DNA of 59,802 nucleotides from Enterobacteria phage JenP2. Below the pieces are notes generated by a model that worked only from the letters and a program-made list of their open reading frames with translations, searched no databases and was not told the origin of the DNA. Below, piece by piece: positions 2,132 through 55,669 of this stretch (its first letter is position 1; the number at the start of each line of letters is the position of its first letter). The DNA lies in sequence record NC_028997.1. One strand, 5' to 3'. Both the position numbers and the translations under genes were made by a program.

Positions 2132-3658
2132 ATGGCCATTTCTTCGGTTCATCCTAAATATTTACAGTTTAGTGCATTATGGTTGAAGATGCGAGACTGC
2201 TTCCTTGGAGCTGACCACATTAAGGCTCAAGGTACTTTGTATCTTCCACCGACACCTGCTATGCGTTATGACGGTATGAAACCAGGCGAAGATGGCTACA
2301 TCCGTTACAACGATTATAAAGAACGTGCAGTGTTCCCGGAGTATGTTGCCGATGCAGTAGTCAATCATGGTGGTATGCTCCATAGTAAGGCAGCTATCAT
2401 CCAGTTACCTGCTGCAATGGAACCCCTTCGTCAATCTGCTACCAGCAAACGCGAAGGTTTAGATCAGCTACTACGCCGCATAAACGAGCTACAGCTACGC
2501 GATGGTCGTCTTGGCCTTCTGTTGGAGCTGCCAGCGGGAAGTACCCGTGACACGCTGCCGTACATTGCGGTATACGAGGCGTTAAGTATACGAAACTGGG
2601 ACGACGGTGAGGATGATCTTGGTTCACTTAACCTTAACCTAGTTGTCCTGGATGAGTCCAAAGAAGTAATGGACAAGACTTCATTTGATTGGACTTATAA
2701 AGTTCAATATCGAGTTCTTGTTCTTGGAAGCGCCAATGTAGATGAACCATCAGATAGCGGTTACGTGTATGGACAGTATATGACAGAACTACTTCCTGGT
2801 GAAGATGACGAACCAGAAGAGGTGAGCTCTGACGTTGTAGTCCCTCAATATAAAGGTACTCCGCTTGAGCAGATACCTTTCGTATTTTGTAACGCTATGG
2901 ACTTAGTCCCAGAACCAGATAAACCACCGCTACTCGCATTAGCAAACAGATGTATTTCCATTTATCAGGGTGAAGCTGATTATCGACAGGCTTTGTTTAT
3001 GCAGAGCCAGGATACGCTGGTTGTTCGCGGTGGTATTACGAACAGTGACGCAATTGATGATAAAGCTCCTGTTCGTGTTGGTGCTGGTGCTCGCATTGAT
3101 GTATCTCCAGACGGTGATGCTAAATACATTGGCACTAACTCGCAAGGTTTACCGGAGCAACGTAAAGCACTTGAAGCTGACCATAAAGACGCGCAGGCCC
3201 GTTCCGGGCATTTGACCAGTGCAGAAAGTGCTTCTCAAGAATCTGGTGATGCACTGGAAACACGTCTTATCACCAAGACTGCTTCATTAGTTGGTATTGC
3301 TAAGACTGGTGCTGCTGCGTTAGAAAAAATCCTTCGTATTTGTGCTATATGGATGGGATTAAATCCAGATGAAGTTAAAGTTACACCTAACCTTGACTTC
3401 AGCAAAGCTAATATTGAAGGCCAGGAATTGGTGCAGGTGCAGACTGCCAAGAATCTTGGTGCTCCGTTATGTTCTGAGTCTATGCACAACTGGTTGCAGG
3501 ATAAGGGAATGACCTCTTTGACGTTTGAAGAGGAGATGAAACGGCTTGAGAAGGAGCGCGAAGAATACCCGTTCCTTTTACCTCAAGTTAAAAACGATCA
3601 GAACCAAATCCAGCAAACAACTGGAGAACAGACGGGGAATGAAAATGCCACTAAGTAA
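2132..3658 (+). CDS. portal protein
   Basis: 508 aa, directly downstream of terL, acidic C-terminus; size and position typical of portal proteins. Confidence 0.7.
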   Translation: MAISSVHPKYLQFSALWLKMRDCFLGADHIKAQGTLYLPPTPAMRYDGMKPGEDGYIRYNDYKERAVFPEYVADAVVNHGGMLHSKAAIIQLPAAMEPLRQSATSKREGLDQLLRRINELQLRDGRLGLLLELPAGSTRDTLPYIAVYEALSIRNWDDGEDDLGSLNLNLVVLDESKEVMDKTSFDWTYKVQYRVLVLGSANVDEPSDSGYVYGQYMTELLPGEDDEPEEVSSDVVVPQYKGTPLEQIPFVFCNAMDLVPEPDKPPLLALANRCISIYQGEADYRQALFMQSQDTLVVRGGITNSDAIDDKAPVRVGAGARIDVSPDGDAKYIGTNSQGLPEQRKALEADHKDAQARSGHLTSAESASQESGDALETRLITKTASLVGIAKTGAAALEKILRICAIWMGLNPDEVKVTPNLDFSKANIEGQELVQVQTAKNLGAPLCSESMHNWLQDKGMTSLTFEEEMKRLEKEREEYPFLLPQVKNDQNQIQQTTGEQTGNENATK

Positions 3659-51501: not shown

Positions 51502-51559
51502 AACCTCACCCTTGATAATAATAAATCGACTGATTTTGAAATTCAGTTGCCAAGTTTTA

Positions 51560-51680
51560 ATTTATGCAAAGTTTTTGCTATTTGCAACCGTGATATTTTG
51601 CGGTGTTTGTATGTGCAATGTTTTTGCTTTTGCAAAAAATTACAACAGTCTGAAGGTGAAAATTTGCAAATTTATAAAGA
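51560..51680. promoter_or_regulatory. array of TTTGCAAA-type palindromic motifs (operator/promoter-like)
   Basis: At least five copies of a TTGCAA core within ~120 bp, including the perfect palindromes TTTTGCAAAA (~51628) and AAATTTGCAAATTT (51660-51673); AATTTATAAAGAT repeated twice nearby; a TTGCAA-17 bp-TAAATT arrangement on the minus strand. Confidence 0.4.
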
Positions 51681-52473
51681 TCGGTGAAAAAATGTACAAT
51701 TTATAAAGATTCAGCAATATACGAAAACGGCGAAGCGAAGTGTATGAAAAATAAGGGAAATTTTTGAGGATTGGGAGGTTTATAGTGATTTATATTATTT
51801 ATAAAGGGGTCTCGTGGGGTCGTCAGTAGACAACTCAAAAACAAAAAATCTTTATAAAATTTATATAAATACACACATATACACATTTTTACCTTATTTT
51901 TCATGCACTTACCTCCTTTCATTTCGTATATTAAGCGGCAATATACGAGCAATATAAGAAATATTTGTTGCGCAACAACGAGGCGCTCACAAGCTCGCGC
52001 ACGCGCATAATGCGGGCACGCGGTCTAACACAAAAGAAAATTGAATTGCAAGCGATTTTTGCTGAGGTAACTCTCGAAGCGAAAGCGATTTGCGAGTATG
52101 AATTTTTGTAGCCCGAAAACGATTCTATTTTATGGTATAAATGTCGGATTTTTCGGTGAAAGCGAGCTTTTCGGTGAGGTTGGGTGGCTGGGATCGGTGT
52201 AACTGGTAGCCCATAAAGCGAAAATAGCCGCGAAAACGGGGCGCGCAGCGCGATTAAATGGTTGGATCAGTGTAAGGGTGGCGGTGAGGGGCGAAAATGC
52301 CGCAAAATCGCTTACAGGGATGCAGGGAGTGGATCGCTATAAGGGCGTATAAGGCGATTAAATTGGAGTCTATGGTAAGGTATGGAAGAGGATTTAGGCT
52401 CTTAGAGCGCGAATGCCGGAGCTATGGGTGAGGAATATGTGGTCAGCAGGGTAGCGCGGGAGGTGGTGCGGGT

Positions 52474-52512
52474 ACAAAAACGAAAGCGCCCCGTTGGACT
52501 TCAACAGGGCGC
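52474..52512 (-). terminator. rho-independent terminator (minus strand)
   Basis: GCGCCCCGTTG-gactt-CAACAGGGCGC stem (one mismatch) followed on the minus strand by TTTCGTTTTTGT; lies downstream of the gene ending at 52536. Confidence 0.6.
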
Positions 52513-52535
52513 GGATTGTATAATGCAGTTAGAAG

Positions 52536-52784
52536 TTATTTACTAGTTAATAATACCGCCCAGGTATTATCTGGAAGCGTACCAACTCCAAGTATCTTAA
52601 ACTGAAGTGACTTGTTCTGCATGTTGTAGTTGTCGAGTAACTCCTGGGCAGCGGCAGCGGCGTTCGCTTCACCGTTCAGGTTGTAGTCGTTTGCAGTTAT
52701 TGCACACATACCGAGGCCGACTGCTTTGAAGCGCATACCTTTGGATTGAGTCGGTGCCAGTGCTTTGATATGGATAGCGTTCAT
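52536..52784 (-). CDS. hypothetical small protein, family A paralog 1
   Basis: 82 aa; paralogous to 53315..53560 (shared AAAxEL, K(I/E)(L/V)GxG(T/E)LPD motifs). Confidence 0.45.
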   Translation of the reverse strand: MNAIHIKALAPTQSKGMRFKAVGLGMCAITANDYNLNGEANAAAAAQELLDNYNMQNKSLQFKILGVGTLPDNTWAVLLTSK

Positions 52785-52813
52785 ATTATTTATCTCCGTT
52801 ACAATTTTAGACG

Positions 52814-53071
52814 TTAGCAGTTTTTTAACAGGTTGATGAAGCCCGCCAGCGTGGACGCTGTTGCAACCAGGCGGCCCATAGTATGCAGTTCCGCGTGAAC
52901 TGTACCGTCGTCGAATACAGTTAAATAAACGTTAAGACCATTGCAACGGACGCGATATTTGCGCGCGTTATTACCGAAAGTTTCTAGCTCTGCGGTAATA
53001 GTCGCAAGATTAGCTATACGTTTGCCGATAATACGGCGAGTGATAGTGGACTGGTTTAATACTGTAGACAT
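52814..53071 (-). CDS. hypothetical small protein, family B paralog 1
   Basis: 85 aa; paralogous to 54386..54691 (ITRRIIGKRIANL vs ITKRIIGKRLHQL; DDGTVHAE...GRLV vs EDGTVSSY...GRPV). Confidence 0.45.
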   Translation of the reverse strand: MSTVLNQSTITRRIIGKRIANLATITAELETFGNNARKYRVRCNGLNVYLTVFDDGTVHAELHTMGRLVATASTLAGFINLLKNC

Positions 53072-53139
53072 AATAATTTCCTCAGTTAACTATGCGAAGT
53101 GCATATTATTGCCCACGGTTACTATGGGCAATGTATATG

Positions 53140-53304
53140 TCACTCAGCGGTCACATATTCTAACGCTTCTGATAGTGTAGCGAAGTGACCATCACTCATC
53201 AGATTAATAGCGTACTCAAGTTGATCTCGGGTCAGGTTGCGAAACTTGTTGCGGATGTGATAGCAACGACCGCGATAAATAACCTGGAAATAGTTGCGTT
53301 CCAT
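53140..53304 (-). CDS. hypothetical small protein
   Basis: About 54 aa from the Met of MERNYF; the track N-terminal extension would overlap the upstream gene. Confidence 0.3.
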   Translation of the reverse strand: MERNYFQVIYRGRCYHIRNKFRNLTRDQLEYAINLMSDGHFATLSEALEYVTAE

Positions 53305-53314
53305 AATTATCCCC

Positions 53315-53560
53315 TTATGCAACGATGAACGCGTAACCGCTTTGATCTGGAAGCTCGCCGCCGTCAACAATCTCAAACTCAACGCCCGCTTTATCGTTGA
53401 ACTTTTTGATAAGCTCTTCCGCTGCGGCGCGGTGGTTGCCGTAAACGCCCAGATCGTCACGCCATGTGATAGTCAAGGAGCCGTTCCAGCCTGTTGCTTT
53501 TACGCGCGGGTTACGGGTAGCAGTCGGGTTCATGAATTTTGTGATGATAGCTTGAGCCAT
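53315..53560 (-). CDS. hypothetical small protein, family A paralog 2
   Basis: 81 aa; see 52536..52784. Confidence 0.45.
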   Translation of the reverse strand: MAQAIITKFMNPTATRNPRVKATGWNGSLTITWRDDLGVYGNHRAAAEELIKKFNDKAGVEFEIVDGGELPDQSGYAFIVA

Positions 53561-53565
53561 GATAA

Positions 53566-53751
53566 TTACTCCGGTAAAATTACAGTGACGTTAATATTTG
53601 CAATGCGAGCACACTCGCGGAAACCTTTTACATAAGCATCCATTTCATCATAGGATGCGAAAGTTGCGTCCGGGACTGGTCCGTTGTTAATATTCACGCA
53701 ATATTCGTGATCGTCCAGGTCCACCCAACAATACAGAACTATAGTTTCCAT
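53566..53751 (-). CDS. hypothetical small protein
   Basis: About 62 aa from the Met of METIVLY; GGAGGG SD lies inside the upstream micro-ORF. Confidence 0.4.
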   Translation of the reverse strand: METIVLYCWVDLDDHEYCVNINNGPVPDATFASYDEMDAYVKGFRECARIANINVTVILPE

Positions 53752-53752
53752 A

Positions 53753-53827
53753 TTATTTGCCCTCCGTATAGTACAGACCTGCAACTATTGGAGCTCCGAA
53801 CACTAAGAAAGCTAATAAGTAGAACAT
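53753..53827 (-). CDS. 24-aa hydrophobic micro-protein (not in the ORF track)
   Basis: Hand translation MFYLLAFLVFGAPIVAGLYYTEGK; GGAGG SD 8 nt upstream; stop overlaps the next start (TAATATG). Coordinates derived by arithmetic from track frames. Confidence 0.4.
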   Translation of the reverse strand: MFYLLAFLVFGAPIVAGLYYTEGK

Positions 53828-53829
53828 AA

Positions 53830-54324
53830 TTAGTTGCCTCCTTTATTGTTGAGCCCGTTGAATTTACGCCATGCGTAGAATTCAATCGTTGCATTATTAA
53901 TATTCCAACCATTAGCTTTCGCAAGGTCACGGACGTTACCAATAGTTGGCACACCATCAGGTAACATATTATCCAGGGCATTCCAAACGTCTGCGCATTT
54001 ACCTTTAATCGGGCGACGAACCCCGTTGCGCGTTTCGCTGCGCGTTTTGCTCTTGGCGAGAGCGACCGGAGCTTGTTGTGTGGTCACTTCCACGACAGTC
54101 GCTTTATCAGCTTCGACCAGATCGTTAGCCGCCTTATTAACCGCGCCTTCGCTGAACCAGTAGCGGCCACCGTCTTCCAGCGGCTCCTGGTGAATGAAAC
54201 TGTTAGCGGTCGCAGTGTCCACATCCAGAACCTTTTTCAAGGCACGGCGAGCGTTAGACATGTTGGTGAAAAAGCGAGCATCTTTCGCTACGCGAGTGAT
54301 AGTTGCCATTGTAAATATCTCCAT
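53830..54324 (-). CDS. hypothetical protein
   Basis: 164-aa ORF (the true start may be the Met of MATITRV at about 54309). Confidence 0.45.
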   Translation of the reverse strand: MEIFTMATITRVAKDARFFTNMSNARRALKKVLDVDTATANSFIHQEPLEDGGRYWFSEGAVNKAANDLVEADKATVVEVTTQQAPVALAKSKTRSETRNGVRRPIKGKCADVWNALDNMLPDGVPTIGNVRDLAKANGWNINNATIEFYAWRKFNGLNNKGGN

Positions 54325-54385
54325 GTTGTTCTAGCGGATTGCTAGTGGGAGCCCACTGTGACAATGGGCAACCATTAGCACGCTA

Positions 54386-54691
54386 TTATTGTTGAATAGC
54401 TTTAGCTATCATTGTGATGAAGCAGAACACAGACCAAAGGCTATTCGCTTGGCATACTGGGCGACCATACATTACGCTATAAGAGCTGACAGTGCCGTCC
54501 TCGTTAATGCGAATGTATAACGCGGTGCTGGAATATTTTTCGTTGCCCGGGAGCATTACCAGATACTCGTCGAAATCCCAATCCCCGTCGACCTTTTCCG
54601 CTGTAAGGCCCAGCTGATGTAGGCGCTTGCCGATAATGCGCTTAGTAATCTGAGATTGGGACATGGAACGCGGTAAGTAGATAATGGACAT
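54386..54691 (-). CDS. hypothetical small protein, family B paralog 2
   Basis: About 101 aa from the Met of MSIIYLPRS; see 52814..53071. Confidence 0.45.
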   Translation of the reverse strand: MSIIYLPRSMSQSQITKRIIGKRLHQLGLTAEKVDGDWDFDEYLVMLPGNEKYSSTALYIRINEDGTVSSYSVMYGRPVCQANSLWSVFCFITMIAKAIQQ

Positions 54692-54880
54692 AATGCAATC
54701 TCCCTTCGGGTGAGGCGGGCGCGGAACCCGTGTCCCGCTTAAAAACCCCCTTAACCCTACGCAGTTATAGTATGACAACGGGGTATCAGATGCAACTATT
54801 ATCTGCATTATTTTAGAACTTTTTTAGTTGTGTTTCATAATAATAACATCCGGGACTACACGGTAGATGGTGTGCCGGAA

Positions 54881-54945
54881 ATACCAGGTAGCGCGAGCGT
54901 GTCGAACATACCAGGTAACAGCACACGCCGAACATACCAGGTAGC
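54881..54945. repeat. three tandem 26-27 bp direct repeats (iteron-like)
   Basis: Core ATACCAGGTA(G/A)C at ~54881, ~54908 and ~54934 within a ~490-bp non-coding region between divergent gene blocks. Confidence 0.6.
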
Positions 54946-55296
54946 ACATACATAGACAGCATATAGTGGGCAGGTGGATAGTAACAGATGTAATTATACT
55001 GGACTGTACAGTATAGTCATGTAATAGATAGCATACTAATCAAATAAAAAATAATAACGCGTGTAATAATAAACAACGTTACAGTAGAGCGCGCAACAGT
55101 CACATGACGTAACAATCACCTCACTGACGATCACGGGACGTTATAGTAACGCCGCGGGGCGGCTCTTAGATCTCTGCCAAGGATTCATCGTTTGTAGATT
55201 ATCTCGTCGCTAGACACTTTATATCCTCACCTCACCTGCCCTATATTGTTCGTATAAAGTTAATTCTGTATGTAAATACTCGAGAGGAGATCTGTT

Positions 55297-55584
55297 ATGT
55301 TCGTTCTGGCTTTCAGTAGTGCAATATGGCTAGGTATCAACTGGATCCTTGCAATTATATTAGGTCTTGTGATTTGGTATGTGCCGTTTATGCGTTACGC
55401 TGTTATCATTTCGCTTGCATATTTAGTTGTTAAACATTTCTTCGTATGGTGTGTATGCAACCCACAAGCTGCAAACATCAAACGTAAGAAAGCGAACTTC
55501 TTTACTGTGCTTATTTTAGGTTCACTGATTGTGTACGCATGGTTGCTCGGTGCGCAGAACTTAGGTTGGTTCACGTTGCCTTAA
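55297..55584 (+). CDS. small integral membrane protein
   Basis: 95 aa; three predicted hydrophobic helices; GAGAGGAGA SD; first gene of the plus-strand right-arm block. Confidence 0.5.
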   Translation: MFVLAFSSAIWLGINWILAIILGLVIWYVPFMRYAVIISLAYLVVKHFFVWCVCNPQAANIKRKKANFFTVLILGSLIVYAWLLGAQNLGWFTLP

Positions 55585-55669
55585 TGTGGTCACTAATTGT
55601 TGCGGCCGGCTATGTTAATCAACTTGCGTATCCTGTTATAGTTATTCCGTTAACGTTAAAGGGGGTTAT

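Follow-up and report, generated by a model that had tools for sequence, protein, structure and literature searches.

The control region lies between divergent arms of a 9g-like phage genome

The window, by which we mean the whole 59.8-kb stretch of DNA that was analysed (59,802 nucleotides), was assigned by sequence comparison to the genus Nonagvirus (9g-like phages, Queuovirinae), and among the genes of the phage are those for a primase-helicase and a polymerase. A divergent non-coding control region of 605 bp (positions 54692–55296, with gene starts taken as annotated in relatives) is bounded by the first gene of the leftward early operon, which starts at 54691 on the minus strand, and by the first rightward gene, at 55297. 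The left gene start at 54691 is preceded by a GGAG ribosome-binding site in annotated relatives, and a longer form of this gene is annotated in ChristophMerian only. An earlier note on this DNA had given the non-coding region as ~490 bp, which falls short of the 605 bp obtained when the left gene starts at 54691, as it does in relatives. The same note had set the region between two early blocks, whereas the rightward block corresponds to the arm that in phage 9g carries the lysis and morphogenesis ('late') genes (Kulikov et al. 2014, PMC4276943).

The control region is 92–97% identical over 12 Nonagvirus phages, and the identity of the region to HdSG1, ChristophMerian, JenK1, 9g, SE1 and others is 93–97%. 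Within it are an array of repeats that share the core ATACCAGGTA, flanked by AT-rich stretches at 54800–54848 and 55020–55075, and a set of ACGT boxes. A conserved early protein of 159 aa is encoded on the minus strand at 53830–54309.

Part of this layout has already been published for 9g. Kulikov et al. 2014 described the genome ends, placing the physical end through a pile-up of reads, and reported a 473-bp untranslated stretch, with two predicted promoters, from the physical end to the first early gene; Pl and Pr are drawn on their map, the layout is likened to the switch of a temperate phage, and the repeats go unmentioned (PMC4276943). The genome end of 9g and the presence of two promoters in its untranslated end region are thus theirs, and in the literature that we searched we came across neither the motif array nor its occurrence in Seuratvirus, nor the variation in copy number or the conserved boxes at the terminus. 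These four we report as new observations, although the type of element is an ordinary one.

The array consists of direct copies of an asymmetric motif

The exact core ATACCAGGTA(G/A)C occurs at 54881–54892, 54908–54919 and 54934–54945, the periods being 27 and 26 bp, so that the three head-to-tail repeats of 26–27 bp described in the earlier note at 54881–54945 are borne out as exact copies of the core. No further exact copy is present anywhere in the 59.8-kb window. When up to two mismatches are allowed the core has 11 matches window-wide against 6.6 expected, which is no enrichment, and the signal therefore lies in the tight cluster of exact copies.

Each ATACCAGGTA repeat is an instance of an asymmetric motif of ~20 bp, tGyGyCGRAnnKACCAGGKRG, and all are in direct orientation. 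The window holds three good copies and a degenerate one, all on the plus strand. Copy 1 (TGTGCCGGAAATACCAGGTAGC, 54871–54892) is near-identical to copy d of phage CAjan (TGTGCCGGAAATACCAGGGGCGCGCGAGC), and copies 2 (CGTGTCGAACATACCAGGTAAC, 54898–54919) and 3 (CACGCCGAACATACCAGGTAGC, 54924–54945) each contain the exact core. The degenerate copy 0 (...CCGGGACTACACGGTAGATGG, 54846–54872 (54849–54867)) matches copy 1 at 68% with a spacing of 25 bp; its centre (54859–54862) is variable within Nonagvirus, and it aligns with a conserved block, GGTACAGGGTAGAGGGTA, of relatives that are Klebsiella phages.

The consensus was built from 15 copies taken from the window, CAjan, GottfriedDienst, SLUR25 and ECP2304. 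Neither ACCAGG nor the G at −6 varies across these 15 copies, in which about 20 positions are informative. Given that the 15-copy consensus is asymmetric, the palindromic look of the core in the window (TACCAGGTA) is incidental. The spacers between copies are unalignable or unrelated, both within one genome and across two genera, with periods of 26–37 bp: successive copies are 25/27/26 bp apart in the window, and in the Seuratvirus arrays 27/37/35, 36/32/36 and 36/36 bp. Regular, helically phased spacing was looked for in the window and in the Seuratvirus arrays and was not found. Tandem Repeats Finder left the array unreported because only a motif of ~16–22 bp repeats and the spacers differ. 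Among cooperative operator arrays, copies 26–37 bp apart and out of helical phase are unusual, a point that counts against the reading of the array that we favour below.

The motif is shared with Seuratvirus and varies from four copies to none

Array copies are kept in 11 of the 12 Nonagvirus genomes and in three IMG/VR contigs. Columns that vary within the genus are concentrated outside the 10-nt core (2/30 columns in the core, 12/39 in the remainder of the array; Fisher p = 0.016). When the Nonagvirus cores are instead compared with the intergenic region as a whole there is no significant extra conservation (p = 0.41), so that the case for selection rests on the comparison between genera.

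Distant relatives were located using the conserved 159-aa early protein, homologues of which are encoded on ~260 contigs, as a guide. Seuratvirus carries the same motif array, with unrelated spacers and periods of 27–37 bp. CAjan has four copies (GCCGGATCGACCAGGTGG, GCCGAATTGACCAGGGGC, GCGGAGCCTACCAGGTGG and GCCGGAAATACCAGGGGC), GottfriedDienst four, SLUR25 three and ECP2304 one, whereas no copy is present in Skure or yong3. For about ten more Seuratvirus records the match covers just ~244 bp, the array-less length, and we take the array to be absent from these on the strength of the match length. It is also absent from the relatives L109, L110 and L032, and copy number across relatives thus runs from 4 down to 0. 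The motif is common to Nonagvirus and Seuratvirus, the primase-helicases of which are only 34% identical. Wherever the array is present (in the window, in 11 Nonagvirus relatives, and in CAjan, GottfriedDienst, SLUR25 and ECP2304) it lies in the promoter-bearing intergenic region.

The Klebsiella-phage relatives vB_Kpn2-P2 and K9PH25C2 and the IMG/VR contigs L033 and L035 have the same layout, and at the position of the array they carry other short repeats, namely GCCTTACAGC three times with a 10-bp period and GGGTAnn three times. Scans of viral contigs with two adjacent cores and with the 15-mer GCCGGAAATACCAGG yielded close Nonagvirus contigs. The remaining hits were giant-virus MAG contigs, or else single matches that are dissimilar to the CAjan region.

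JenP1 is the Nonagvirus phage that lacks the array. The segment that corresponds to window positions 54776–54966, which held every array copy and the left AT-rich stretch, is swapped in JenP1 for an unrelated 700-bp cassette carrying a 102-aa ORF, and the segment 54967–55286 is kept. The small terminase subunit of JenP1 is 100% identical to that of the window, the large subunit 99.4% and the primase-helicase 97.5%. The replacement cassette has no counterpart in the phage collection and belongs to no PHROG family; in L032 the corresponding place is occupied by a cassette homologous to that of JenP1. The array segment is, from JenP1 and L032, exchangeable with other cassettes at that place. Horizontal transfer of such cassettes could account for part of the conservation of the motif between genera.

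No gene that is present in CAjan (which has the array) and missing from both Skure and JenP1 (which lack it) was found among the window genes. That no gene tracks the presence of the array in the three relatives compared points to a core phage factor or a host factor as its partner. The early proteins have no match in Pfam or NCBIfam, and their PHROG families are of unknown function only. The structural model of the 159-aa protein, which is of moderate confidence (pLDDT 74), has a C-terminal three-helix bundle, and comparison of this protein with solved structures gave homeodomain-like and winged-helix-like fold matches that are non-significant (best E = 0.9). Nothing convincing came of a by-eye comparison of the motif with the consensus sequences of LexA, CRP, GntR, MqsA, sigma-54, sigma-28 and RfaH-ops.

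Predicted promoters surround the array

The promoter calls in the control region are weak consensus matches, of a kind that numbers 611 window-wide at ≥8 bits. On the minus strand, a consensus scan predicts a leftward promoter, ATGAAA-17-TAAAAT (54810–54838), with its −10 element at 54810–54815 and a start near 54803, relative to which the array would sit upstream at about −57 to −136; by eye, the TTCTAAAAT −10 region is common to CAjan, SLUR25, GottfriedDienst and the IMG/VR contig L032. The best sigma-70-like match, ATGACT-16-TATAAT (54993–55020, minus strand), has a predicted start near 54986 and is kept in JenP1. It overlaps a 21-bp palindrome, TATACTGGAC-T-GTACAGTATA (54995–55015), and were transcription to begin at 54986 the array would fall in the transcribed leader. 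On the plus strand, the predicted rightward promoter TTTAGA-18-CATAAT (54812–54841), a BPROM feature in the 9g record, lies just upstream of the array, and this segment is lost through the JenP1 replacement; the consensus scan gives a second predicted rightward promoter at 54953–54982. The distance from the array to the predicted promoters differs between genera. Window-wide, GTTATAGTA and TAGACA-type promoter motifs are not enriched, and no data on Nonagvirus transcription start sites were found in the searchable literature.

A conserved module flanks the mapped genome end

Three records have exact direct repeats at both of their ends, with 0 mismatches: HdSG1 (3363 bp), HdK1 (3367 bp) and ECP2304 (3695 bp). 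The repeats of HdSG1 and HdK1 share their right boundary, where ...GCCGCGGGGCGGCTC is followed by TTAGATC, and this junction corresponds to the one between positions 55165 and 55166 of the window. The left boundaries of the two repeats are 3 nt apart and correspond to window positions 51798–51801. Moreover, 91 reads start at nucleotide 28,243 of 9g, which is the physical end of that genome (Kulikov et al. 2014, PMC4276943). This nucleotide (27769+474) corresponds to window position 55165. The HdSG1 and HdK1 records and the published end of 9g show where the right boundary of the terminal repeat is to be placed in the window, namely between 55165 and 55166. By the exact repeats of HdSG1 and HdK1, the window would have a direct terminal repeat of ~3.37 kb (51798–55165), within which lie the seven small leftward genes and the greater part of the control region. 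The array is inside this repeat, 220–285 bp from the physical end, and the ACGT repeats are 20–90 bp from the end.

Long direct terminal repeats are found in genomes of the T5 and SPO1 type, in which they encode the host-takeover genes that are expressed first. The arrangement here is alike in that an exact terminal repeat (3.4–3.7 kb) contains small early genes together with the promoter region, but the repeat is much shorter than in T5 and SPO1 and the early proteins are, as far as tested, unrelated.

The second set of repeats comprises three ACGTWAYA boxes on the plus strand (55076–55145), at 55076, 55107 and 55138, in an exact 31-bp phase; these are the short ACGT(T/A)A(C/T)A repeats to which the earlier note had drawn attention. 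The pattern was defined after the sequence had been seen and matches 15 times in the window against 10.2 expected, so that the unusual part is the clustering and phasing. Boxes 1 and 3 both read ACGTTATAGTA in most relatives; they are conserved within Nonagvirus only, and not in the Klebsiella-phage relatives. The boxes resemble TAGTCACA-N-GTTACTGT, an element that is present three times in the relative L110. To the right of the third box, the physical end is 20 bp away.

The boxes belong to a conserved module next to the terminus (55097–55165, plus strand), where an alignment of 15 Nonagvirus sequences has 3 variable columns out of 69. It includes the near-palindrome GTCACATGACGTAAC (55099–55113), the box ATCACCTCACTGACGATCA (55115–55133) and a GC hairpin, GCCGCGGGGCGGC (55151–55163), after which comes the physical end, following 55165. 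A second CACCTCAC box, on the plus strand at 55228–55235, lies 62 bp past the end position and pairs with the box at 55117–55124. This second box is kept in HdK1 despite local divergence and also in the Klebsiella-phage relatives, and ECP2304 has a CCCCACCT box at the same relative place beyond the cut. More broadly, the CACCTCAC boxes and a GATCA block are conserved in Klebsiella-phage and Seuratvirus relatives, and the sequence at the repeat end of ECP2304, CCCCACCTAGGATCATCAGGG..., is recognisably homologous to window positions 55115–55236. The fold of single-stranded DNA near the genome end is unremarkable. Since the module at 55097–55236 both directly flanks the mapped end and is conserved among relatives, it is likely to be the site at which terminase recognizes and cleaves the DNA. 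The ACGT repeats, phased at 31 bp beside the cut site, are best read as part of this putative recognition region.

The array and the terminus come apart in ECP2304: its array sits at ~2.6 kb, and three genes intervene over the ~0.9 kb that lead from there to the end of the terminal repeat. This separation, together with the homology of the end sequence itself, indicates that the array travels with the control region and is a module separate from the terminus.

The array as a candidate accessory cluster of binding sites

The motif is invariant while the spacers drift, both within genomes and over two genera, which points to selection on a recognition sequence. As the array is always in the promoter-bearing region, its most economical reading is as a candidate cluster of sites that modulates the adjacent promoters, and the existence of viable relatives with zero to four copies makes it an optional, accessory element. 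The reading that we favour thus has two parts, namely that the array is a dispensable accessory cluster of binding sites and that the genome end, between 55165 and 55166, is accompanied by a terminase module; judged from sequence comparisons, we would give the two together a probability of about 0.5. Under the first part, the copies would bind one sequence-specific DNA-binding protein as a cluster, the binder would be either a core phage protein that is present in all relatives or a protein of the host, occupancy would tune the adjacent promoters (those of the early leftward operon or of the rightward arm), and the number of copies would set the strength of the effect. We infer both the binding of protein and the effect on transcription. 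The earlier note had suggested, among other possibilities, sites for a regulator of divergent transcription, and of its suggestions this is the most compatible with a motif that is held constant in a promoter-bearing region, although no cognate binder emerged from the gene comparison across three relatives or from the family and structure searches.

Direct-repeat operators between face-to-face promoters are familiar from temperate phages, examples being the sites of the P2 C repressor and the boxes bound by 186 Apl and P2 Cox. Like the array described here, these consist of direct, asymmetric sites between or beside opposed promoters. Their spacing is about 10–22 bp, whereas it is 26–37 bp here, and in contrast to the P2 and 186 switches the present phage is virulent and the same searches gave no cognate regulator. 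Moreover, copy numbers of 0–4 among viable relatives indicate that the array, unlike those of P2 and 186, is not a required element of a switch.

It is unlikely, though a reading to be taken seriously, that the array is a functionless minisatellite or mosaic remnant, a duplicated stretch spread by recombination between phages and lost without consequence. Variation in presence and copy number, the exchange of the segment for other cassettes in JenP1 and L032, the lack of a gene that tracks the array among the relatives compared, and Nonagvirus cores that are not clearly more conserved than other intergenic sequence are all what such a remnant would lead one to expect. Neutral decay, however, would hit motif and spacers alike, whereas ACCAGG is invariant in 15/15 copies set among unrelated spacers, and Nonagvirus substitutions avoid the 10-nt core (the 2/30 against 12/39 given above).

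We regard as improbable a role at the level of RNA, in which the array, once transcribed, would soak up an RNA-binding factor as a sponge or decoy, or else mimic a type III antitoxin. The predicted plus-strand promoter at 54812–54841 is directly upstream, and alternatively the array could be transcribed within the leader of the leftward operon; in addition, dispensability and a copy number of 0 to 4 recall the pseudo-ToxI repeats that occur in phage PhiTE, several Seuratvirus units have, by eye, a local hairpin beside the motif, and GAAAU occurs in some copies. The likeness to ToxI and pseudo-ToxI extends to tandem non-coding repeats of ~27–37 nt in a phage with a copy number that varies among relatives, but ToxI-like antitoxins are built of near-identical units of constant length, whereas the units here differ from one another and a common fold is unsupported. 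Indeed, with unit length (26–37 nt) and spacer sequence both variable, a single fold common to all units is impossible. Hairpins are lacking in the Nonagvirus units, GAAAU is not conserved between copies, the fold of the leftward leader is no better than that of shuffled sequence (z = −0.58), and there is no match to an Rfam family at E up to 1.

Somewhat more doubtful still is a related proposal, that the array may be a horizontally exchanged decoy of variable copy number which, as RNA or as DNA, would titrate some factor of the host or a component of a defence system early in infection. Such a decoy would explain why the array is dispensable in the laboratory, why it is shared by two genera that infect the same hosts, why no phage gene tracks it in the relatives compared, and why there are 0–4 copies.

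The earlier note had raised an iteron-type replication origin, in which the repeats would bind a phage initiator such as the primase-helicase and the adjacent AT-rich segment would melt. Iterons are known from plasmid and phage origins, for example lambda ori, P1 and pSC101, and the array resembles these in having AT-rich flanks and three or four ~20-bp direct repeats. The phage has a primase-helicase and a polymerase of its own, and cumulative GC skew reaches its minimum at 51–55 kb; the switch in skew merely tracks the change in gene orientation, and so is uninformative. Against an origin, JenP1, with a primase-helicase that is 97.5% identical, has neither the array nor the AT-rich stretch on its left; Skure, yong3, L109, L110 and L032 likewise have no array, and ECP2304 has a single copy; and two genera whose primase-helicases are only 34% identical share the motif. 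Unlike iterons, moreover, the array is dispensable and irregular (26–37 bp), has no DnaA box (TTATNCACA, ≤1 mismatch) in 54692–55296, and has no initiator gene next to it or, in the relatives compared, co-occurring with it. Absence of the repeats from close relatives, which is what is seen in JenP1 and several Seuratviruses, had been named in the earlier note as an observation that would speak against its proposal, and we accordingly regard an origin as very unlikely and have given it up.

A packaging signal, in which the small terminase subunit would assemble on the array for cutting of the nearby end, is the least credible of these readings. In its favour are the 220–285 bp that separate the array from the physical end at 55165, the frequent binding of small terminase subunits to repeated sites, and the short-repeat arrays that T7-like phages have beside their terminal repeats. 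However, JenP1 lacks the array while having an identical small subunit and retaining 54967–55286, many Seuratviruses have zero copies, the ECP2304 array is ~0.9 kb from the repeat end whereas the end-proximal sequence is homologous, and the terminus-proximal module is by far the better candidate. Dunn and Studier reportedly described the T7 arrays, SRL and SRR, as flanking the terminal repeat; a short motif, variable spacers and a position near the repeat boundary and the early promoters are common to those and to the array, which differs in lying inside the repeat, ~0.9 kb from the boundary in Seuratvirus, and in being missing from many relatives. The packaging site proposed in the earlier note is thus abandoned for the ATACCAGGTA array, on the evidence of JenP1 and ECP2304, and survives for the ACGT set as part of the terminus module. 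Absence from viable, near-identical relatives and separation from the terminus in Seuratvirus effectively exclude both an origin role and a packaging role for the array.

Three further candidates were rejected. The array is overlain by small ORFs of 49, 41 and 41 aa, annotated in SP8, ChristophMerian and FritzHoffmann and as gp71 of CAjan, but these remain open only because divergence is low, and nearly all substitutions are non-synonymous in every overlapping frame. Avoidance of Dcm or EcoRII sites, suggested by the CCAGG within the core, does not fit the over-representation of CCWGG (103 against 61 expected). As regards Chi-like protection of the end, the motif is not Chi, and the only 2 true Chi sites both lie away from the end.

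Implications for 9g-like phages

The control region is a hub of the 9g-like, deazaguanine-modified coliphages, where the physical end, the beginning of the late arm and the promoters for the genes expressed first come together. Separating its two sets of repeats turns them into testable targets, on the one hand the array that we read as an accessory cluster of binding sites, with its variants of 0 to 4 copies, and on the other the conserved terminus module. The natural series of copy numbers is a ready allelic set, with JenP1 to be compared with 9g/Bas19 and Skure with CAjan/Bas21. These targets bear on the timing of early transcription and on how terminase defines exact terminal repeats. If the binder of the array is a host protein, this would be a case of a lytic phage exploiting a host regulator by means of an exchangeable cis cassette.

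Coding capacity around the array

CDSs are annotated across the motif array in several relatives, among them one at positions 3222-3431 of CAjan (a Seuratvirus that carries the array), where gp71 is an example, and small ones in SP8, ChristophMerian and FritzHoffmann that lie over window 54813-54962. We think that these CDSs are probably not genes: in the Nonagvirus alignment, nearly every substitution across the array changes the encoded amino acid, whichever overlapping frame is read.

Sequence elements of the control region and its surroundings

A 21-bp palindrome, TATACTGGAC-T-GTACAGTATA (window 54995-55015), overlaps the best sigma-70-like promoter match on the minus strand. Among relatives its arms are mostly retained and its centre is variable, and the palindrome looks operator-like; its spacing differs from that of a LexA box. 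The block GTATCAGATGCAACTATTATCT (window 54783-54804) is common to Nonagvirus and Klebsiella-phage relatives despite diverged flanks, and AGATGCAA is present in the CAjan control region too.

The minus-strand leader of the first terminal-repeat gene (window 54692-54745) forms GC-rich hairpins directly 5' of the start codon, the 3' hairpin of which (CUCACCC-GAA-GGGAG) encloses the ribosome-binding site. The intermediate relative L110, which has no array, carries an equivalent hairpin at 2600-2640 with the stem CCCCC...GGGGG, in which the ribosome-binding site is likewise sequestered. That such a hairpin is kept in L110 despite a different sequence suggests that the first early gene is subject to translational control.

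On the other side of the control region, the sequence TTAATC-16-TATAGT with TGT before it (extended -10; window 55620-55648), upstream of a 121-aa gene, is likely a rightward promoter. It does not vary in any of the 12 Nonagvirus relatives, even where the gene before it is missing. Across the whole window the Dcm/EcoRII site CCWGG is over-represented (103 sites vs 61 expected from shuffles).

The terminal repeat: left boundary and operon

The terminal repeat has its left boundary (at about 51798-51801) within roughly 1 kb of AT-rich, non-coding DNA (window 51520-52500), where a 29-bp tandem repeat (window 51655-51710) and other short repeats also lie. On first principles, this stretch is a better candidate than the array for an origin or a promoter cluster.

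The minus-strand terminal-repeat operon (window 52536-54691) contains two paralogue pairs, one of 101 and 85 aa (both phrog_13865) and one of 81 and 82 aa (both phrog_3199). The 159-aa early protein (window 53830-54309, minus strand) has homologues throughout Queuovirinae and in many other siphophages of about 58-60 kb that infect Pseudomonas, Vibrio, Providencia, Pantoea and Alteromonas; the phage records number 116. The C-terminal ~65 residues, predicted to form a three-helix bundle, make up the conserved portion, and one homologue is annotated 'transcriptional activator'.

Exchange of cassettes

The gene for a predicted membrane protein of 95 aa (window 55297-55584) is a swappable cassette: ESCO3, BRET, PD328 and JenP1 lack it, HdK1 has an HNH endonuclease gene in its place, and homology breaks exactly 3' of the conserved TGTAAATACTCGAGA. 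At the position of the array, JenP1 carries an alternative cassette (1977-2676) with an ORF of ~102 aa, for which we found no PHROG family. Since a homologous ORF sits at the equivalent position in a Klebsiella-phage-like IMG/VR contig (L032), the segment that separates the first early gene from the terminus module appears to be exchangeable.
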